Assembly: GCA_965213705.1 (NCBI GenBank)
Contig: OZ243913.1
Coordinates: 192,001 to 256,000, forward strand
Source of the DNA: Trueperaceae bacterium
Lineage (GTDB): Bacteria > Deinococcota > Deinococci > Deinococcales > Trueperaceae
Length of the DNA: 64,000 nt
Direction: 5' to 3'
Shown here: positions 16,909-26,971 of the stretch, piece after piece
How the letters are laid out: the number at the start of each line of letters is the position of its first letter
Numbering within the stretch: position 1 is the first letter of the stretch
The notes under the pieces: model-generated
Seen by the model: the letters and a program-made list of their open reading frames with translations, nothing else
Database searches by the model: none
Told to the model about the DNA's origin: nothing
Position numbers and translations under genes: made by a program

Positions 16909-17043
16909 ATACGGATTCTGATCGATTTGTTTGCAAGCGAATCAATCCGAGCGTGGCGAGGAGGAACAGAGACACGGACTCGAGCGGTACGGAATAGCGC
17001 CGAACGTTTTTCTCGGCGCTATGGAATTTAGCGGAATCCGTAT
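16909..17043. mobile_element. 135-bp MITE-like small repeat resembling Deinococcus SRE/SNR elements
   Basis: Terminal inverted repeats ATACGGATTC / GAATCCGTAT and internal hairpins (GATTTGTTTGCAAGCGAATC; ATAGCGCCGA..TCGGCGCTAT). Family resemblance is from memory. Confidence 0.7.
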
Positions 17044-18134
17044 CAATCAGCCAACAGACCCCGCCGCTGCGCCGCCGCCAACAAGGTCACGCTGCGCGAG
17101 TAGTCCCGTACGCCCGCCGCGACGCCCTGCGTTTTTAGGTAGCGGTCGTAGGTGCGGCGCTGCCAGGCGCTTAAAAACGCAGGCGGCCGGTAGCGCTGAA
17201 AGGGTGCGGACAGCGCCGCCAAGTCTTGCCGGGCAACCTCGGGCAGGGCGGCGTAAGCGGCGGTTCGCACTTCTCGGGGCACCTGCGCGGCCACGCCCTG
17301 CCACACCCGCAGCGCGACCGCGTAGCGCGCGAACGTGTCTCCCGCGCGCAGACCGGCCACCGTGGAGACAAAGTCCGCGTCCGCCTCGCCCGCGTAACCG
17401 GCGACGTGGGCGAGTTCGTGCGCGCCCACCGCGACGCGGCCCCACGCGGGCAGCGCGCCGTCCACGTGCGGTTCTAAAGTCAGCGGCGAGGCGATGCCCG
17501 ACGCGCCGCCCGACAAGATGAGCAGGCCCGGCCAGGTGCGTTTGACCCGCGCAGGTAACGTCGGGGTGACCTGGGTCGTCTCGAGCACGACTCCCTGCAA
17601 CGCTTCTCGCACCGCCCTCAGCGCCGCGGCCTCGTCCCTGGGCGCGGCGGCACCAGTTTGAACGACCCGCGTCAGCTTGGCTAAAAGAGCTTCCAAATCG
17701 GCCTGCGTTACGGCCTCGTCCTGCAACCCGAACTGCGTCTCGACCGACGCCCGGCGGTAGTTCGCGCCCCACAGGACGACAAACAGCAGAAAAACCGCCG
17801 CCAAACCGACGGCGGTGCGCCACAGCGTTTGCACAAACCAGCGCGGCGCGTTTTTCTTGCGCCGCCAGCTCACACCCAAACTCAGCAACCACACGAGCGG
17901 CAAAAAGACGACGAGCATTGCGCCCAGCGACACCGGCACGCTGTTCGTGACGGGCACGACGACGCCCGCCAGCGCCGGGTAGAGGCCGCGGCTGTACCAG
18001 CTTTCGACTCGTTCCGGGCCGGGGCTCCACACCAGCCACAACAAGGCTAAAGCGATAGCGCCGCCCCCCAGCACGAAGGGGAGAAATTGCAAGCCTCTCC
18101 CCTTTTGCGTTTTGGAACGGACTCGAGCCGACAC
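17043..18134 (-). CDS. DUF3810-like membrane protein, putative zinc peptidase
   Basis: VESWYSRGLYP, LWGANYRR, HELAH..GYAGEADADF motifs. Leaderless TAAACT-7nt-GTG. Confidence 0.75.
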   Translation of the reverse strand: MSARVRSKTQKGRGLQFLPFVLGGGAIALALLWLVWSPGPERVESWYSRGLYPALAGVVVPVTNSVPVSLGAMLVVFLPLVWLLSLGVSWRRKKNAPRWFVQTLWRTAVGLAAVFLLFVVLWGANYRRASVETQFGLQDEAVTQADLEALLAKLTRVVQTGAAAPRDEAAALRAVREALQGVVLETTQVTPTLPARVKRTWPGLLILSGGASGIASPLTLEPHVDGALPAWGRVAVGAHELAHVAGYAGEADADFVSTVAGLRAGDTFARYAVALRVWQGVAAQVPREVRTAAYAALPEVARQDLAALSAPFQRYRPPAFLSAWQRRTYDRYLKTQGVAAGVRDYSRSVTLLAAAQRRGLLAD

Positions 18135-18144
18135 GCCCTGAAGT

Positions 18145-19203
18145 TTAGCGTATCCCTTTTTGCGCCAAGTAATCTTTGAGCGCGTCCACCCCCGCCTGCC
18201 ACACCGTTTCCGACAAGTAAGGCTTGAAGCCGAGCGCGCGGTTGATTTTGAGCATCGGCACGTTCTCGTCGGCGTTGCCGGTGCGGACGAACTTTACATC
18301 GGGGCGTTCGCTCAAGACTTTCGTGAGCATGGCCGCTTTCAACCACTTGCCGAGCCCGTGGCCGCGGTACTCGGGCAACACGCCGGTATCACCCTGGTAA
18401 AGCGTCTCGGGCGTTTCGGGGTCGATGAAGAGGGCGGTGTACCCGGCCAACTTGCCCGAGGCGTGCCGCGCGTAGAGCGTCCAGCGCTCGACGCCCTGCG
18501 CCGCCTGATACGCCTCCCGTTGGCGTAAGTGCTCGGGCGTGACGGTAAAGTCCTCAATCTCCAAGTCGCCCATCGGCGCGGTGTTCATGACCGTGTGCAA
18601 GTCGGCGATGGCCGCCAGTTCGTCCTCGGGGTAGGGACCCATCCACAAGCCAACCGTGAAGTCGCGTGCACTCTCCCGCGCACTTTCCTGCCAGTCGCGG
18701 AGAAGGTCGGGCGAGAGGTCGGCCAAAACGAGCCGGTTCGTGTGCGCTGTCAGCCCCGCTTTGGCCCCGACGTCCTCGGCGAAAGGAACCCCTGCGGGGG
18801 CGTTGGCGTGCGTAAAACTTATCAACAGGCTGCGGTCATTCGCCTCAGCGAGTTGGACGGCTTTCTCCAGGAGCGCCGTGCCGAGCCCGCGCCGCCGGTA
18901 AACGGGCAAGACGTTCAAATTGACGTCCATGAGGTGCCGGTTGTCCTCGCGGTGGGCAACGGTGGCGAACAGTTCGGCCACCACCTCACCCTCTCGGACG
19001 GCCTCCCAAACTTGAATATCGACGTCTTCAAAAACTTGCCAGCCCTTAGCGTTGTTGACCGTGGCCTGGAGCGTTCGCGGCGGGTCGTCCGGGTGGGCCT
19101 CGGCGCGAATCAGGTTTAGAAACGTGTGCCGCGCGGCAAAGTCGGCCTCGGTCGCCGTTTGCGGGTCGAAGCGGGTCAGGGTGTAGGTTTTGTCGAGAAT
19201 CAC
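18145..19203 (-). CDS. Tandem-domain GNAT acetyltransferase (array gene 6)
   Basis: Two acetyl-CoA motifs VLPVYRRRGLG and VLPEYRGHGLG, plus TGNADENVPMLKINRALGF. Confidence 0.9.
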   Translation of the reverse strand: MILDKTYTLTRFDPQTATEADFAARHTFLNLIRAEAHPDDPPRTLQATVNNAKGWQVFEDVDIQVWEAVREGEVVAELFATVAHREDNRHLMDVNLNVLPVYRRRGLGTALLEKAVQLAEANDRSLLISFTHANAPAGVPFAEDVGAKAGLTAHTNRLVLADLSPDLLRDWQESARESARDFTVGLWMGPYPEDELAAIADLHTVMNTAPMGDLEIEDFTVTPEHLRQREAYQAAQGVERWTLYARHASGKLAGYTALFIDPETPETLYQGDTGVLPEYRGHGLGKWLKAAMLTKVLSERPDVKFVRTGNADENVPMLKINRALGFKPYLSETVWQAGVDALKDYLAQKGIR

Positions 19204-20276
19204 AGGGTCACTCCTTTTTCGTCATGCTCAAAAGTGCGAGAGGGGTTCGCCAGCTTCGGCCGAACGTCGGCCACGTTCACTTGCCACACCGTGTGGGCGA
19301 TGTAAGGCCTAAAGCCCAAGCGGCGGTTGATGGACAGCATCGGCGCGTTCACGTCGGCGTTGCCGGTGCGAACCAGGGTAACTTGAGGGCGTTCGGCCAG
19401 GACTTTTAAGAGCATCGCCGCCTTGAGCCACTTGCCCAAACCGTGCCCGCGAAACTTCGGCTTGACCGCCGTACCCCACTGCCGCACGAGGGTCGGCATG
19501 TCCGCTTGCCAGGCGGTGGTGCTGAACCCGGCCAGTTCACCCGTGGCGCGGTGACGCACGTAGTATTCCCAGACTTCGGTGCCGGTTTTGGCGAGGTAAG
19601 CCTCGTCCTCGCGCAAGCGTTGCGGCGTGGCCTCGAAGTCCTCGATTTCCAAACTCCCGCGCGGCTCGGTGTTCATCACGTTCATCAGCTCGGCGATGGC
19701 CGCCAACTCGTCTTCGGGATAGGTGGCCGGCCACAAGCCTATTTCGAAGTCGGCGGCGCTCAAAGCCGCTTCCTCGCACCAGGTCTGCAGCAGCGAGCGG
19801 TCCAGGTCGGCCAAAACGAGCTGGTTCGTGTGGTTGGTGATGCCCATGCGCGCGCCGAGTTTGCCGGCGAACGCCTCACCCGCGGGCACGGTCGAACTCG
19901 AGTCGAACACGAGCAAGCTGCGCGCCTCCTGTTCGGCCAGCTTCACCTGTTCGGCCAGCAAGCTCCAGGCCAAACCCCGACGCCGGTATTCGGGCAAAAC
20001 GTAGATGTCGGGCTCGAGCAGGTGCCGGTTATCCGCCAGCGGCAGCCCCGCGACGGCTCTCGCGACCGGTTCCGCGCCGTCCCACAGCAGCTAATAGTGT
20101 TGCTTAAAGTCCGTAAACTCTGCTAGGCCCTCAAACGTCCGGCGGTGGTAGGCGGGGGTGAGCGGCGGGTCGTCCGGCAGTATTTCAGCGCGCAACTTGT
20201 TGACCAAGCGCGTGTAGGCCTCTAAGTCGGCGTCGCTTATCGTCTTCGTGTCCAATTTTTGCAGTCTGAGGTTCAT
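19200..20276 (-). pseudogene. Tandem-domain GNAT acetyltransferase (array gene 5) with a single in-frame TAG
   Basis: ORFs 20091-20276 and 19200-19997 are in the same frame (1077 nt total). Reading through TAG at 20091-20093 gives QHY*LLWDGAEPVARAVAGLPLADNRHLLEPDIYVLPEY, colinear with paralog 18145-19203. Confidence 0.8.
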
Positions 20277-20518
20277 GTTCGTCCTTGTCCGGCGCGGCGT
20301 TCGTTGCCGCGCTTGAAGTTGCCCGTGAGTTTCGCCATGAGCAGTTGCGCGTCCGTTTCAGAAGCGCCCCCTACGGCGGCGGTGAAACGTTCGGCCTCTC
20401 GCCCTTTCAAAATCTTTACCTGTTTGCCTTCGTAAGAAAGAAACACTTTGCCGTCTTTGCTCGTTCGGTAAGCGAAAGGTCGAGCGTCCAACCTCTCACG
20501 CTTGTCGGTGGTGCTCAT
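20273..20518 (-). CDS. Small basic hypothetical protein (81 aa) inside the GNAT operon
   Basis: ATGA overlaps on both sides. MSTTDKRERLDARPFAYRTSKDGKVFLSYEGK..QLLMAKLTGNFKRGNER. Confidence 0.75.
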   Translation of the reverse strand: MSTTDKRERLDARPFAYRTSKDGKVFLSYEGKQVKILKGREAERFTAAVGGASETDAQLLMAKLTGNFKRGNERRAGQGRT

Positions 20519-21405
20519 GCGGGTTCTTTCGTGAGGGTGTACTCGAGTTCCTCGAACACCTCGCGAAAACCCAAAGATTTGTAGAGGCGTTCGGCAGCCG
20601 GGTTGTCCCGGTCGTGGCACACTTTGGCGAGCGTCGCGCCGTGTTTTTGCATACGCCGCAAGCCCTCAGACAACATCAGCTTGCCCAGCCCTCGTCGGTA
20701 AAAGTCTGGATGAGTGCGCACCGGTTCGAAGACGCCGATTTTGTTCACCGCGTCCAGCCAAACAATGCACTCCGCCGCGAGGCGACCGTCCGGGGCTTGG
20801 ACGACGAGGTGCAAGTCCTGGCGGTAGAGGGGCGTCTCCCTGACTTTTTTCAGGGCGGCAGCTTTTTGATGAAGGACGGGGGTGCCGCCGTCGACCAAGT
20901 CCTCGTCACGAAGGCTGCGGACGCTGTACCCGGCGGGCGGCTCGAGCAGAGCGGGAGGGGATAGCTCGAGCATCGTCTGCACCATCGCCTTACCACTCAG
21001 CGCGAAACCCGCCTGTTCCGCCAACGTGCGCAACGTGCCGTGGCTGTCCCGAACGAAAACCGAACGGGTTCCGCCGTCACTCGCCATCCGTTTCAGACCG
21101 TCCAGGCCCCACCGAAACATCTCGCCGACAACTTCATGCCCGTCGCCCAAGCTCGGCAAAAACTCATAGTCGAAGGCGCGGTAGTCCGTCGAGAGCAACC
21201 CGAAGGCCAGCACTTTTTCCTCGTCTTCCCAGAACATTTGCTTGCCAGGCTCGCGGTAATCGCCGTCGCGCCACCACCAGTTGAGGTCGCCTGCGTCGTA
21301 AAGGCCCGCGTACTTGTCGTCTTGACGAAAAGCGGTCATGGCTTCGGTTACTTTTTCCAAGTAAACGCGGTCCGCGTAGCCGCGCTTGTTTATCACGGTC
21401 GGCAT
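20515..21405 (-). CDS. GNAT acetyltransferase (array gene 4)
   Basis: GGAGG RBS. FEPVRTHPDFYRRGLGK, NPAAERLYKSLGF. Confidence 0.9.
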   Translation of the reverse strand: MPTVINKRGYADRVYLEKVTEAMTAFRQDDKYAGLYDAGDLNWWWRDGDYREPGKQMFWEDEEKVLAFGLLSTDYRAFDYEFLPSLGDGHEVVGEMFRWGLDGLKRMASDGGTRSVFVRDSHGTLRTLAEQAGFALSGKAMVQTMLELSPPALLEPPAGYSVRSLRDEDLVDGGTPVLHQKAAALKKVRETPLYRQDLHLVVQAPDGRLAAECIVWLDAVNKIGVFEPVRTHPDFYRRGLGKLMLSEGLRRMQKHGATLAKVCHDRDNPAAERLYKSLGFREVFEELEYTLTKEPA

Positions 21406-21406
21406 G

Positions 21407-22351
21407 TCAGCCTCCAAGCTTTTTCACAAAGTCGATGTTGGCGGGCTGCTTTACGAAGCCGAGCCGTTCGTTGATAGCCAGCATGGATACGTTGTTCGAC
21501 TCGTTCCAGGTGTTGATTTCGGGCGCGCCGAAAGTTTTGGCGAACGCAACGCCTTTGAGCTTCAGCGCCAGCGCGACGCCCTTGCGCCGGTACGCCCGAA
21601 GGACGCCCGTCAAACCCGTGTGCAGGTGAGCGTCGGCCTTGGACACGAACAGTTCGCTCAGGCCCACGTACTCGTTCCCCGCAACCGCGACGAGGTAACC
21701 CTCCGGCACGAAGCGCTCGTCCTCCCAATGAAACGAAGCAAAGCGTTCGAAAGTGGGTCTGGTGTACTCGCCCGTCATCGGCACGTCCTGGTCGAGGGTG
21801 GTGTGGAGACTGTAGATTTTGCGGTCGCGGCCTGGGTCGTGGGCGAGGTCGGCGTAGGTTTTCACCTCGACGCCCTTTGCTTTCAGTGCGTCCTCGAGCC
21901 CCTCGAACGGTGCCACGTCAAAGGCCGCGACGTCCAAGCGCGACTCGAACGAACGCGCTTCTTCTTCGAAACCTCGAGCCTGTAAAAAGTGATTCTTGCG
22001 CGCCCAGTCCTCGCGCGAAAAGTCCCGCAGTTCGGTGGGTCTGTAGGACGCTACCTCACTCAGTAGACGCTCGAAAAGCGCCCTGCCGTGGCCTCTCCCC
22101 TGCTGCTCGGGCGGTACGACCGCACCCAGCCAGAACTTTTGCGGGTGAAAGCTGTCTTCGCTGTGCTGAAACGAGCCGTAGCCGACAGGGTTGCCGTTTT
22201 GCTCGAGCAGCCAGCGCTTCAAAACGAGGTGTTCGGGCCGCTTGGCGTCGTTGCGGCGCAGTTCGTCGGCGGTCGTCTTGTAGGGGTAGGCCGCGTTCCA
22301 GATGTGGGCGACGGTTTCGAAATCGTCTTCGGTAAAGGGTCGGATGTTCAT
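21407..22351 (-). CDS. Tandem-domain GNAT acetyltransferase (array gene 3)
   Basis: VPPEQQGRGHG and LTGVLRAYRRKGVALALK, NVSMLAINERLGF. Confidence 0.9.
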   Translation of the reverse strand: MNIRPFTEDDFETVAHIWNAAYPYKTTADELRRNDAKRPEHLVLKRWLLEQNGNPVGYGSFQHSEDSFHPQKFWLGAVVPPEQQGRGHGRALFERLLSEVASYRPTELRDFSREDWARKNHFLQARGFEEEARSFESRLDVAAFDVAPFEGLEDALKAKGVEVKTYADLAHDPGRDRKIYSLHTTLDQDVPMTGEYTRPTFERFASFHWEDERFVPEGYLVAVAGNEYVGLSELFVSKADAHLHTGLTGVLRAYRRKGVALALKLKGVAFAKTFGAPEINTWNESNNVSMLAINERLGFVKQPANIDFVKKLGG

Positions 22352-23235
22352 GGTTTCATTTCCTCAAGCTTTGAAACGGGTTTCTCGAACCAACTCTTCG
22401 ACCATTCGGTTTGAAACCCTACGGACGCGAACGTTTGAAGCGCGGCGTGGTTGGTACTCATCGTCGTCAGCGCCGCTCGGGTGACACCACGTTCTGCCAG
22501 GGCGGCAAAGGCGGTTTGGAGGAGGGCTCGAGCCAAGCCCGAACGCTGGTACTCGGGATGGGTGCAAACGGGGTCGGTGAAACCGAGGCCGTCCTCTATC
22601 ACGGTGATGCAACTTGCCGCCAATCTGCCATCCGGCGCGACCACCACGAGGTCAAAGGCCGGGTCATAGTCGGGGCGTTGCACGATGGCGCGGCGCTCTT
22701 GAAGCGTGAAAAAGTCCGTCCCGAAGGCGGCTCGGTGGAGGGCCACAGCCGCTTCGGTTTCGTCACCGTCAAGGGGGCGAATGTTGAAACCTTCCGGCAA
22801 GCTCGGCTTCTCGAGCTGAGTCAAGTTCCGCGTCAGCCGCAACGTCTTCTCCTCTTGTTCGACAAAACCGTGACGCTTTAGCAAGCCAACGCGTGCCGCG
22901 CTGTCGCTGGGACAGGCCGTGTCTAGGGTTAATGCTTTGTCAGACTCGAGACGCGCTTCGCCCCAGGCAAAAATGTCGGCTGCAAGCGCGTCCTCGTCAC
23001 CCGCTATATCGAAGTAGATGTTCCGGTAGCGCGTGTCCACGAGCGCGTAGGCACGGAGCCGCCCGTCTGCGCTCCGCCACAGGGCGGTGTTGCGGCGAAT
23101 GTCGGTTTGTGAGAGCAGTTCGCCCAAGTCGGCGGCGCTCGGATGGTCGTGAAGATATTTTTGGGGCCTCACCTCGGCCAGAAGTGCCTGCATTTTCTGC
23201 AAATCACGCTCATCTGCGTAGGGTTGTGAATTCAC
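22348..23235 (-). CDS. GNAT acetyltransferase (array gene 2)
   Basis: DPVCTHPEYQRSGLARALL, NHAALQTFASVGF. Confidence 0.9.
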   Translation of the reverse strand: MNSQPYADERDLQKMQALLAEVRPQKYLHDHPSAADLGELLSQTDIRRNTALWRSADGRLRAYALVDTRYRNIYFDIAGDEDALAADIFAWGEARLESDKALTLDTACPSDSAARVGLLKRHGFVEQEEKTLRLTRNLTQLEKPSLPEGFNIRPLDGDETEAAVALHRAAFGTDFFTLQERRAIVQRPDYDPAFDLVVVAPDGRLAASCITVIEDGLGFTDPVCTHPEYQRSGLARALLQTAFAALAERGVTRAALTTMSTNHAALQTFASVGFQTEWSKSWFEKPVSKLEEMKP

Positions 23236-24188
23236 GGCGTTTCTCCAAAATCTTTTTTCAGGTACAGCCAGGCGGGTTGTTTGACAAAGCCCATCCGTTC
23301 GTTGATGGCGAGCATCGGGCGGTTGGTCGAGTGGTTTTGGGTATCGACGGTGGCGACGCCGTGCGCTCGAGCGTATTCAGCGGCTTTGAGCTTGAGAGCT
23401 TGGGCAACGCCCTTGCGCCGCCACCCGCGACGCACCCCGGTCAGGCCGGTGTGCAGCGTGTCCGCGGCTTCGGCCCCGCGCAACTCGCTCACGCCGATGA
23501 GTTCGTCGCCGTCGAAGGCGAGGAAGTAGCTTGCAGGGTTGAAGGTCGGGTTGCCCCACCAGCGTTCGCGCCACAGCTCGAACGGCCAAATCTCGAGCGG
23601 CTCCGCAAAGGGCACGTCGCCCAGCAGTTCGACGACGACGCTGTAAAGAAGCCGCTGCGTGGCCTCATCGTCCGGCAACTCGGCAAGAGTCTTGAAGGTG
23701 ATGCCCGCGGCCTCCGCCTTTGTGGTCGCCCAGGCAAACCGCTCCGGCTCGAGCGTGTCGAGGGCCAGCGCCGACGTCCAACGCCGCTCGTATTCCTCGA
23801 AACCGCGCTTTTTGTAAAAGTCGGGCCAGTGCGACCAGTCTTCGCGCACCTGCACGCGCAAACTTACCGGGGCGTAAGGCTCGAGCGCCCCCACAAGATG
23901 CTCGTAAAGCGCCTCGGCGAGTTCGAAGTGTTCGGGCTCGAGCAGCAGGTCGAACACAAAAGCGTTCCGGCTGAGGACGTTCATGTCCCGCACGTAAGAC
24001 ACCGCGGCGACAAGACGGTCCCCACGCTCGAGCAAAAAACGCCCGTGATACTCGTCTTCGCCCCGCCTGGCCTCGAAGTGCCGCAACTCGTCAACGCTGC
24101 GCGGGCTCTCTGGGCGCAGGCGGTTGCAAAAGGCGACGAAGCGTTCGTAGTCGGCGTCGGTAAACTCTCTGAGGTCGGTTGCGTCCAT
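23232..24188 (-). CDS. Tandem-domain GNAT acetyltransferase (array gene 1)
   Basis: LTGVRRGWRRKGVAQALK, NRPMLAINERMGF. Confidence 0.9.
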   Translation of the reverse strand: MDATDLREFTDADYERFVAFCNRLRPESPRSVDELRHFEARRGEDEYHGRFLLERGDRLVAAVSYVRDMNVLSRNAFVFDLLLEPEHFELAEALYEHLVGALEPYAPVSLRVQVREDWSHWPDFYKKRGFEEYERRWTSALALDTLEPERFAWATTKAEAAGITFKTLAELPDDEATQRLLYSVVVELLGDVPFAEPLEIWPFELWRERWWGNPTFNPASYFLAFDGDELIGVSELRGAEAADTLHTGLTGVRRGWRRKGVAQALKLKAAEYARAHGVATVDTQNHSTNRPMLAINERMGFVKQPAWLYLKKDFGETP

Positions 24189-24298
24189 CAGTCACTCTTT
24201 CTGTAGGGGGTTCAAGACTGAGCCTCGAAGGAGCGAGGGCGACAGCACGCCGCTCGACAAAACTCGTAAATCTAAACGTATGGGGTTGTAAGTAGGGT

Positions 24299-24382
24299 TT
24301 AGCGCGTGGTCGGGTTCGAAAAATCCGTTTTTACAAGGACGCACCAGCCTACGCGGGAGGAAATCAAAGACATCTGAGACAT
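24299..24382 (-). CDS. Putative 27-aa leader/small peptide MSQMSLISSRVGWCVLVKTDFSNPTTR
   Basis: AAAGGAGG RBS closely upstream of ATG 24382, TAA at 24299-24301. Below the ORF-track size cut-off. Confidence 0.45.
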   Translation of the reverse strand: MSQMSLISSRVGWCVLVKTDFSNPTTR

Positions 24383-24460
24383 TTTTCCTCCTTTCTCGCC
24401 CCGTGACAGGGCGGACGCGAACCCCGGCGGGGCTCGAGCGCGTAATGCAATGGGTGAACC

Positions 24461-24484
24461 TTAACGGCGTCGAACGTAAATCAT
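24461..24484 (-). CDS. Putative 7-aa uORF MIYVRRR (attenuator leader peptide)
   Basis: ATG ATT TAC GTT CGA CGC CGT TAA, starting 10 nt after the TACACT -10 box. Confidence 0.5.
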   Translation of the reverse strand: MIYVRRR

Positions 24485-24494
24485 GCTGCCGAGA

Positions 24495-24503
24495 AGTGTA
24501 GCA
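24495..24503 (-). promoter_or_regulatory. Extended -10 promoter of the GNAT operon leader
   Basis: TGcTACACT on the minus strand. Confidence 0.55.
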
Positions 24504-24545
24504 CGTCCTGCAATTCAGGTCTAGCCCGGAACTAGAGGCTGGAGC

Positions 24546-26696
24546 TTAAGTCGTGTAGCCCAACCGTTCTTCATAGCGGGCGCGGCTCAGCAGCCACCAC
24601 TCGCCCCCGGCGGGTTCGAAACCCGCCCCGGTCAGGTCGTCCACAGTTTGGACTTGCAGCGTTTTTACGCCCAGATGTTCAAAAGCGATGCGGGCGAGCG
24701 CGCCGAGTGCAGCGATACGCGCCCAGCTCAAGGAGCACGCGTCCTCGGCTTCCAAAACCGTTACGTGGCCGACCGCCGCGCCTGGCGGCAACAACAGCCG
24801 CAAACCGAACGAAGCGCCGGTCGCAAAGTCGGCGCGACCGTTTTCGAGGCCGTTCGTCGTCACGACGACGCCGCGCGAGGCGGCGCGGTAGCGCGGCAAG
24901 GGCGCGGGGAGCGCGGCGTCGTAGCGCTCGGACAGCTCGTGAAACAGCTCTCGCAAACGCCCCCCGAGCCGTTCCCGCTCCCGCTCGCCCAAGCGCGACG
25001 GGTCGAGGAGGCGGGTCTCGAGCAGCGTTCGTTCGTCCTCTAAACTCTCGAGGGTGGCTTCCTCCGCTACGGTCAGCGAGGTTTCCTCTTCAAAATTCAC
25101 TTCGGGCTCGAGCCGCCGCACGCCCTTGAGGTAACCCGCCAAACCGCCCCGGTACTCGACGAGTTTGCCGCCGTCCAGCGACCAGAAGCGCGTCGCCACG
25201 GCTTCGACCAGGCGCTCGTCGTGGCTGACGAGGAGGACGGCGGCGTCGGTGCTCTTTAGGGTGTCCTCGAGGGTTTCCAGCGCCGGGATGTCGAGGTCGT
25301 TGCCGGGCTCGTCGAGGAAGAGCAGGTTCGCCTCTCCGGCGACGAGGAGCGCCAGGCCCAGGCGGGCGCGCTCGCCGCCGGATAAGGTGGCGGGCGGTTT
25401 GTCCCAGGCGGCGGGCGGCAACCCCACGAGCGCGAGCAGTTGGTGCGCCCTGGCGCGGGAGACGTAGCGCTCGAGTTGAGTCAGCGGTGTCGCGTCGTCC
25501 GCCACGCCGCGCGTGACTTGGTCGAACAGCTTTGTCCGGGTCGACCTGCTCAGGTTGAGTTCGGCCCGCGGGTCGTCCGACTCGGTCTCACCTGCCAGCA
25601 GTTTCAGCAACGTCGTTTTCCCGGAGCCGTTCGGCCCGAGCAGCGCGATTTTGTCGCCCGCTTCGACGCGCAGCCCCACGTCGTCGACCAGCACCCGCTC
25701 CCCCAAGACTTTGCTGAGGTGTTTGGCGCTGAGCAACGTGCCGCGGGCCGCCGCGGGGCGCAAGCTCAGGGTCGTTACTTTTTCCGCGGTGGGTGGGGCG
25801 CCGGGCGGGTGCCGCACTTCCGAACCTCGGCGTTCCAAACTTTTGCGCCGCCGGTGCGCCGTGGGTGTGCCCCAGGCGCGCAGTCGCTGCACACTCTCTT
25901 CCAGCCGCGCGGTCTCTTTGGCGCGTTCTTTGCTTTGCCTGACGGCGCTCCGCCGCAGCACACCTTGTTGCGTGTGAAAAACGCTGTAGTTGCCACGGTG
26001 CAGCGTCAGCTCGCCGTTTTTCAGGTACGCGACGTGCGTACACACCACGTCCAGCAGTGCCCGGTCGTGCGAAGCCAGGAGCAGCGCCCCTCCGTAAGCG
26101 CCGAGTCGCCGCTGAAGCGTGCGCCGCCCCAACAGGTCTAAGTGATTCGTCGGCTCGTCCAGCAGCAGCACGTCGGGGCGGGCCGCCAGGGCCGTCGCCA
26201 AACCCAAGCGGGCCCGCTCGCCGCCGGACAGACTTGTCACGCTGCGCCCGAACTGGTCTTGGGTAAACCCGAACTCGAGCAGCGTCTTGTCCAGTTCCGC
26301 CTCGGCTTCGTAGCCGCCTGCCGCTTCGAACAGGGCGGTAAGGTGCGCGTAGCGTTCCAGGTCGCCACCCGCCGCCAAACGCATTTCTTCGCGGCGCAGT
26401 TCGCGCTCTAAGCTGTGGACGTGCTCCAAAGCCGCGGCCGCCACTTCAAAAAGCAGACCCGTCATCTTACCGCCGGCTTGAGCGAGATAGGCCAGCCGCA
26501 CGCCCGGACTCCGCACCACCCGGCCCTCGCTCGGCGCAAGCTCGCCCGCCAGGATGCGCAGCAGCGTCGTCTTGCCCGCCCCGTTGGCCCCCAACAAACC
26601 GACGCGCTCACCGCTCCGCAGCGTCACGGAAATGTCGCGCAGTAAGTCGCGCCCGCGCAGCGCAAAACTCAAACGTTCGGTGCGTAGTTGCTCCAC
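24546..26696 (-). CDS. ABC-F family ribosome-associated ATPase with C-terminal extension
   Basis: Two NBDs (GANGAGKTT/LSGGE/LLLDEPTNHLD; GPNGSGKTT/LSGGE/LFLDEP), HRGNYS linker, no TM domain. Leaderless TAGCCT-7nt-GTG. Confidence 0.9.
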   Translation of the reverse strand: MEQLRTERLSFALRGRDLLRDISVTLRSGERVGLLGANGAGKTTLLRILAGELAPSEGRVVRSPGVRLAYLAQAGGKMTGLLFEVAAAALEHVHSLERELRREEMRLAAGGDLERYAHLTALFEAAGGYEAEAELDKTLLEFGFTQDQFGRSVTSLSGGERARLGLATALAARPDVLLLDEPTNHLDLLGRRTLQRRLGAYGGALLLASHDRALLDVVCTHVAYLKNGELTLHRGNYSVFHTQQGVLRRSAVRQSKERAKETARLEESVQRLRAWGTPTAHRRRKSLERRGSEVRHPPGAPPTAEKVTTLSLRPAAARGTLLSAKHLSKVLGERVLVDDVGLRVEAGDKIALLGPNGSGKTTLLKLLAGETESDDPRAELNLSRSTRTKLFDQVTRGVADDATPLTQLERYVSRARAHQLLALVGLPPAAWDKPPATLSGGERARLGLALLVAGEANLLFLDEPGNDLDIPALETLEDTLKSTDAAVLLVSHDERLVEAVATRFWSLDGGKLVEYRGGLAGYLKGVRRLEPEVNFEEETSLTVAEEATLESLEDERTLLETRLLDPSRLGERERERLGGRLRELFHELSERYDAALPAPLPRYRAASRGVVVTTNGLENGRADFATGASFGLRLLLPPGAAVGHVTVLEAEDACSLSWARIAALGALARIAFEHLGVKTLQVQTVDDLTGAGFEPAGGEWWLLSRARYEERLGYTT

Positions 26697-26971
26697 GCCC
26701 CCCAGGCTATGCAACACAAGCTCGCTCAGCCGTAGTCCAGGACGAGAAAGCGTTTTTGGGTCGTCTCCACCGCTCGAGACCTTCTCTCTGTGGTCTACGT
26801 TGGTGAGACCGACTTGGGTGAGACCGACTTGGGCATCCCGCAGCCCGCCTTGTGCGCCGTGACCGTCTGCAAGGCGCCATCACGACCTTGTGACTCGAGG
26901 GAACGGCGCAGGTGCAACCGTTAAAGCCCACATCTTGAGCCCACCGGACCCCGACCGGGTAAGCTGTTGAC

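Follow-up and report, generated by a model that had tools for sequence, protein, structure and literature searches.

We propose that an array of paralogous GNAT acetyltransferase genes, located in a 64,000-nucleotide stretch of a Trueperaceae bacterium genome (contig OZ243913.1; the whole stretch is called the window), is an operon headed by a conserved leader with a short upstream open reading frame (uORF), and that this leader most likely is a ribosome-sensing attenuator. We put the probability of this reading at roughly 55%. Normal translation of the leader would keep the operon shut and stalling of ribosomes would open it. The mechanism class is already known; its occurrence on operons of tandem GNATs and on RIO1 kinase genes appears to be new. 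In the open-access literature (subscription papers fall outside this scope) we found no description of the leader, or of uORF-controlled RIO1 kinase or tandem-GNAT operons in the phylum. The leader consists of the following elements:

24495..24523, minus strand: predicted promoter, with a -35-like hexamer at 24518-24523, a 17-nt spacer and an extended -10 (TGCTACACT) at 24495-24503
24461..24484, minus strand: near-leaderless 7-codon mini-ORF or conserved short motif; a 7-codon ORF lies at the equivalent place in loci L001, L126 and L127
24387..24393, minus strand: strong Shine-Dalgarno (SD) sequence of the uORF, with a possible pairing to 24356-24363 inside the uORF
24299..24382, minus strand: 27-codon leader uORF, its frame preserved across a 3-nt indel in the same-genus genome
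24254..24298, minus strand: C-rich, G-poor, weakly folded stretch past the uORF stop (12 C, 6 G and a dG of -1.6 in 45 nt) with a short conserved motif

As in an attenuator, an SD-led short ORF is thus placed between promoter and first gene. The segment conserved in the same-genus genome (G151, locus L001) has its 5' end at the promoter-like site, and most homologous leaders have the same -10. In G151 the leader is 78% identical and remains before the first GNAT; genes A and B are absent there and the leader adjoins A'. The uORF peptides of the two genomes share 12 of 28 residues. The pairing of the SD with 24356-24363 (dG -12.5) is by itself not significant against codon shuffles (p 0.14). 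The post-stop stretch may be a Rho loading site, and a Rho gene is found in the genome holding the window (G000); a C-rich, unstructured rut-like tract past a uORF together with a genomic Rho is, as a mark of tnaC-type control, a weak criterion. An Rfam scan of the leader gave no family at gathering score and one chance match. A consensus scan for promoters and terminators returned no promoter and 13 terminators where 12.9 are expected, with no minus-strand site in the leader. Searching the leader DNA against 128 genomes of the family yielded G151 as the sole real match beside short chance matches, and none elsewhere in its own genome; this search and the ABC-F tallies given below (82/128; 36 genomes) include the unpublished genome G215, on which nothing else rests.

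The genes behind the leader are:

23232..24188, minus strand: GNAT A, tandem GNAT of the A family (Pfam, pairwise identity, domain comparison)
22348..23235, minus strand: GNAT B (Pfam match confined to the C-terminal half)
21407..22351, minus strand: GNAT A', tandem GNAT of the A family (Pfam, pairwise identity, profile)
20515..21405, minus strand: GNAT B' (Pfam match in the C-terminal half only)
20273..20518, minus strand: x, an 81-aa conserved hypothetical protein (no Pfam match)
19200..20276, minus strand: GNAT C, interrupted by an in-frame TAG (reading frame, same-genus orthologue)
18145..19203, minus strand: GNAT C', tandem GNAT, Orf14/CBG-like (PDB 2WPW, E 1.7e-24)
17043..18134, minus strand: DUF3810 protein, 10 nt past C' (Pfam)

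The sequence-only reading of this DNA had described six GNATs and one small protein in the order A-B-A'-B'-x-C-C', joined by 4-nt overlaps or a 1-nt gap. Order, junctions and paralogy stand: all seven genes are on the minus strand, successive junctions from A to C' measure -4, -4, +1, -4, -4 and -4 nt, Pfam Acetyltransf_1 is matched by all six GNATs, and the pairs A/A', B/B' and C/C' are 37, 28 and 51% identical. The GNATs thus are a tightly coupled operon, with which the DUF3810 gene may be co-transcribed. What did not stand is the integrity of C. Its codon 62 (positions 20091-20093) is a TAG where the same-genus orthologue has Trp, so that the intact GNATs number five. Since the region-holding contigs from both public runs carry no alternative letter at this site (both from a single sample, from which the assembly itself may derive), the TAG is probably a real nonsense allele.

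The comparative evidence comes from the whole order, where 82 of 151 genomes have the A family and 63 the C family, often as arrays. An SD+uORF leader heads 21 of 65 A-family loci taken as best matches (27 flagged by script, minus L009, L013, L085, L091, L117 and L121 as misplaced or promoterless), namely 11/30 in f1, 7/10 in f4, 3/7 in f5 and 0/18 in f2; judging from gene content, f1 would be Truepera-like, f4 Meiothermus-like and f2 Deinococcus. Several loci have a RIO1 kinase or methyltransferase gene between leader and GNATs. Indeed, 33 of 50 RIO1 kinase loci have such a leader (20/30 in L145-L174, of which L168 looks spurious, and 13/20 in L274-L293), and an A-family gene lies inside the 1.5-kb flank of 10 of the first 30. 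By comparison, among the 1484 G000 genes whose free upstream space is 150 nt or more, only 10 carry SD and uORF (0.7%), one of them with an extended -10, the uORF length window being 18-45 aa for this background and 8-50 or 15-50 for the loci. Several RIO1 loci missed by the strict pattern show variant SDs by eye. The uORF of f2 RIO1 loci is about 40 codons long and genus-conserved, with its stop near the kinase start and no evident terminator.

The genome holding the window has such a kinase leader as well. Outside the window, its RIO1-family kinase (G000:C1:1775423-1776600, minus strand) is preceded by a -35/-10-like promoter, a strong SD and an 18-codon uORF, followed by a post-stop motif resembling that of the GNAT leader. 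A strict G000 scan for promoter, SD and uORF gave four matches, one being the window leader and one a CRISPR artefact; it overlooked the RIO1 leader and is thus insensitive. A CRISPR-like repeat array starts at about G000:C1:4137630 (plus strand). An SD pattern search over 61 genomes was uninformative. Across three families, the features of leader and uORF are kept in position, not in peptide sequence. The idea of an attenuator-like leader is therefore largely supported by its promoter, SD and uORF architecture; a terminator is missing from the subtype of the window. The gene-neighbourhood survey suggested earlier shows a recurring linkage of leader and GNATs, but not the expected third partner, as an ABC-F gene is near in 10 of 36 genomes only.

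Two leader types can be distinguished. Type 1 comprises eight leaders (seven f4 loci and one f1 locus), all with a hairpin of -15 to -23 kcal/mol and a U-tract 15-23 nt past the uORF stop. Five of the ten terminator pairs are changed on both sides, a covariation score reached by none of 500 shuffles. An invariant element in the type-1 uORF could pair with either of two partners, the SD (complementary in 86% of cells) or the 5' arm of the terminator (90%), which would give a four-segment switch. In the case of L095, the terminator persists in footprint folds. A sequence-only model of the eight leaders, run on 150 genomes, refound all eight and one new strong match (E 1e-14) in G129, where a uORF and terminator immediately precede an A-family GNAT; ten further matches in eight genomes are weak. 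Type 2, the subtype of the window, comprises the window leader and nine others. Their alignment keeps promoter, SD, uORF frame and post-stop motif in all ten at 41% mean column identity, and C exceeds G past the uORF stop in 9/10. Their anti-SD inside the uORF has codon-shuffle p values of 0.03-0.86. In type 2, translation up to the uORF stop would expose the C-rich stretch to Rho-dependent termination, which a stalled ribosome would block; the switch in the window could be Rho-dependent or translational. As at whiB7, the signal would be a general slowing of translation (through drugs or a lack of amino acids) and not one amino acid.

Published expression data exist for a RIO-like kinase gene of another species. 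In the available part of the supplement to the Deinococcus deserti differential RNA sequencing study (PMC4007540), the RIO-like kinase Deide_19990 has its transcription start site (TSS) at -171, behind a promoter (TGC-TACCGT) resembling those of the f2 RIO leaders. Untreated cells gave 4771 reads for the TSS versus 334 for the gene (14-fold) and irradiated cells 12412 versus 697; on one table page it has the largest total, 50270. For four leadered controls, TSS and gene reads were 754/1849, 438/232, 37/87 and 197/386 (ratios 0.4-1.9). These counts fit strong premature termination unrelieved by radiation. The same paper assigns its 14 leader peptides to amino-acid and tRNA-synthetase genes. It also lists the leaderless Deide_19920, probably syntenic with the f2 A-family arrays, with raw TSS reads of 60/71 untreated versus 397/502 irradiated.

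Several observations weigh against the attenuator. Deide_19990 is another gene in another species, and its numbers are raw counts from a 5'-biased method, in which a stable leader RNA is also possible. The surveyed loci were picked as best matches and are related, so that the counts show spread and not independent events, and the 18 f2 loci without a leader indicate that GNATs do not need one. The two leader types are alike in architecture, but their sequences are not alignable, and the type-1 model gives no match in G000, so that the window leader is not found by it. After the uORF, a canonical terminator is present in 0/10 type-2 leaders, that of the window included. In type 1, the SD/anti-SD and antiterminator pairings show no two-sided covariation and the antiterminator duplex has p values of 0.01-0.46 against codon shuffles; over all pairings the range is 0.01-0.98, mostly not significant. 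Equilibrium folds with simulated ribosome footprints reveal no switch at the ribosome-binding site of the first gene or at the post-stop stretch, neither in the window nor in L001 and L126. Finally, the leader had been described as structured and about 300 nt long; it spans 357 nt and its minimum free energy (-103.5) is no better than that of shuffles (-96.3 +/- 5.7; z -1.27; 11 of 100 as good). The case for the window leader being regulatory is a comparative one.

In the best surviving alternative, the leader senses a specific metabolite, amino acid or RNA-binding protein, in a tnaC-like or Nus-dependent manner, and the GNATs serve general detoxification or protein acetylation. E. coli tnaC combines a uORF with Rho-dependent attenuation. 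The stop codon, conserved motif and C-rich tract resemble that architecture, and the window likewise combines a uORF in the range of 25-30 codons, a weakly folded C-rich stretch past its stop and a genome encoding Rho. Moreover, the Deinococcus GNAT expansions have been proposed to be cell-cleaning enzymes in the accessible part of PMC1978522. Unlike tnaC, however, there is no conserved arrest peptide: a comparison of 21 uORFs gave no conserved peptide motif and no dominant or singly enriched residue. Nor is there a boxA at the stop codon, an idea we dropped as the motif past the stop is unlike the boxA-like element of the G000 rRNA leader. We consider a specific signal unlikely.

The sequence-only reading had placed the upstream ABC-F gene in the same regulated unit. 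The gene is co-oriented and directly upstream as described, ending 357 nt before A:

24546..26696 (start 26696 or 26717), minus strand: ABC-F ATPase, YheS/YbiT-like (Pfam 2x ABC_tran + ABC_tran_Xtn)

That ABC-F, leader and GNATs are one co-regulated antibiotic-resistance unit is less likely still. Among the 36 genomes having both the ABC-F and the A family, an A-family gene lies at most 6 kb downstream of the ABC-F gene in ten and at most 1 kb in seven, no terminator-like site separates ABC-F and leader in the window, so that read-through is possible, and both ABC-Fs and GNATs belong to WhiB7/WblC regulons in the accessible reports. Yet the predicted promoter lies past the ABC-F stop, the genes are unlinked in the other 26 genomes (some with fragmented contigs, several with long ones), and only 1/25 ABC-F loci has a uORF of its own upstream. 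In the same-genus genome about 1.8 kb part the leader from ABC-F, containing a probable transposase gene and, on the opposite strand, a lipoprotein-like gene (L001:7880-9400), and the leader stays with the GNATs. The protein itself does not look like a resistance (antibiotic resistance, ARE) ABC-F. Its best structures are YheS, YbiT, EttA and Uup, the linker has YheS length without insertion, thus without the extended interdomain linker (antibiotic resistance domain, ARD), and among ARE models NF000355 scores 350 bits versus a cut-off of 380, with Msr, Vga, Lsa, Sal and OptrA far lower. A C-terminal extension of about 180 aa (24546-25100) has no Pfam match and is conserved in the family orthologues. 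At E 1e-97, 82 of 128 genomes contain this conserved family gene (in a few cases it is probably the paralog), a plasmid search gave one weak record, and in 8/20 ABC-F loci DUF3810 follows it with no A-, B- or C-family match in between. We read the ABC-F as a housekeeping neighbour owing its place to family synteny (ABC-F ... DUF3810), likely a separate transcription unit and not under the leader, with read-through possible.

The uORF could also encode a precursor peptide, with the GNATs (and, in relatives, the RIO1 kinase, methyltransferase, nucleotidyltransferase and C45 peptidase) as tailoring enzymes of a pathway like those for ribosomally synthesized and post-translationally modified peptides (RiPPs), and with the hairpin keeping precursor RNA in excess. 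The strong SD, the modifying enzymes as neighbours, the likeness of uORF peptides within a genus and the very abundant leader RNA in the D. deserti data at hand would agree with this. Past the genus, however, the peptide is unconserved, with 3-9 identities to 19 other leaders compared with the 12/28 in the same genus; the L103 uORF is cut to 11 codons, yet its RNA features persist; the f2 arrays have no peptide; and no exporter occurs among the neighbours scanned. The pairing of a conserved precursor motif with export or maturation genes, typical of RiPP clusters, was not seen among the uORFs and neighbours scanned, and we hold this explanation to be very unlikely. Least probable is a relic or plain long 5' untranslated region before a constitutive array, for which the missing structure signal, the missing folding switch and one broken gene could speak, but which is at odds with the features kept in ten type-2 leaders and with the low background of such leaders.

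Under the attenuator reading, the enzymes would be what ribosome stalling releases. A, A', C and C' are tandem GNATs, with acetyl-CoA-binding motifs and two GNAT domains. Against the PDB, the A-family profile finds 2WPW (E 1.3e-20) and 7Q3A (E 1.3e-9), the latter presumably MAB_4324c. Orf14/CBG (2WPW), closest structure for both C' and the A-family profile, belongs to the clavulanic acid cluster; the window differs in lacking a biosynthetic cluster context, and the likeness yields no substrate. Curated NCBIfam resistance models (AAC, SAT and Eis types considered) place none of the six GNATs near a cut-off, the best score being 27 bits versus 420 for STAT. The antibiotic-resistance framing of the locus is not supported; that the GNATs act on proteins or cell metabolites is at least as likely as that they act on drugs. 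According to the available part of PMC10727445, MAB_4324c is a direct WhiB7 target with a modest amikacin effect. The accessible sections of PMC10727445 and PMC11685415 report that most tested WhiB7-regulated GNATs of Mycobacterium abscessus conferred no resistance, which weighs against our reading. In PMC1978522, of which part was available, the expansion of GNATs in the Deinococcus lineage is noted and RIO1 kinase DR2209 is listed; paralog arrays are likewise common there, but the f2 triplets have neither uORF leader nor ABC-F, unlike the window. These f2 A-family arrays (L105-L120, L124) are triplets in 16/17 cases and have no uORF leader; 16/17 are divergent from a gene that we take, from its motif, to be LmbE-like, and they share a motif (GCTGGCGGATGC) just 5' of the -10.

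Protein x is predicted (by a structure model) to have three strands and two helices, and matches no Pfam or Atlas family, fold or PDB entry. Its 213 homologues are widespread in Bacillota and Chloroflexota. A role as dedicated GNAT partner was rejected, with A/C-family neighbours in 1/80 loci and other GNATs making up 5/58 scanned neighbours. Elsewhere in the genome, a third, stand-alone C-family GNAT (G000:C1:157880-158905, minus strand) is 51% identical to C'; no uORF leader was seen before it. Genes for C45-family peptidases/acyltransferases recur 3' of GNAT arrays or DUF3810 (L089 and L091; L009 and L021 by resemblance). Between ABC-F and a divergent SIMPL gene, a direct repeat of about 14 nt is present in two to three copies (26780-26840).

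The closest known systems help to place the leader. Listeria lmo0919 is a uORF-regulated ARE-ABCF gene. It shares leader-peptide control with vmlR of Bacillus subtilis, and here too an ABC-F is close by; the difference is that here the leader follows the ABC-F gene instead of controlling it, and that the ABC-F linker is as long as that of YheS. In actinobacteria, whiB7 is gated by a uORF attenuator (PMC10274678, available part). The type-1 relatives likewise have a promoter, a uORF, an intrinsic terminator and a possible antiterminator in the uORF, and the whiB7/wblC regulon is similarly GNAT-rich, that of WblC in Streptomyces coelicolor including 16 GNATs in the part of PMC7157823 at hand. 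In contrast to whiB7/wblC, the leader here directly precedes operons of enzymes (GNATs, RIO1 kinase) and not a transcription factor gene, and the subtype of the window has no intrinsic terminator.

In summary, we tentatively suggest, at somewhat less than even odds, that Deinococcales have a translation-stress response of the WhiB7 kind that lacks the transcription factor. A single class of uORF leader, alternating between forms with and without an intrinsic terminator, would directly control both a RIO1 kinase and sets of tandem GNATs, and on ribosome stalling these GNATs would modify drugs or the translation machinery. We see no evidence for a new resistance determinant. If the proposal is true, the GNAT expansion and the RIO1 kinase of these bacteria, two long-noted and unexplained features of the lineage, would share one trigger, and a GNAT-rich response to ribosome stalling, as wired through WhiB7/WblC in Actinobacteria, could be wired by cis-acting leaders alone.

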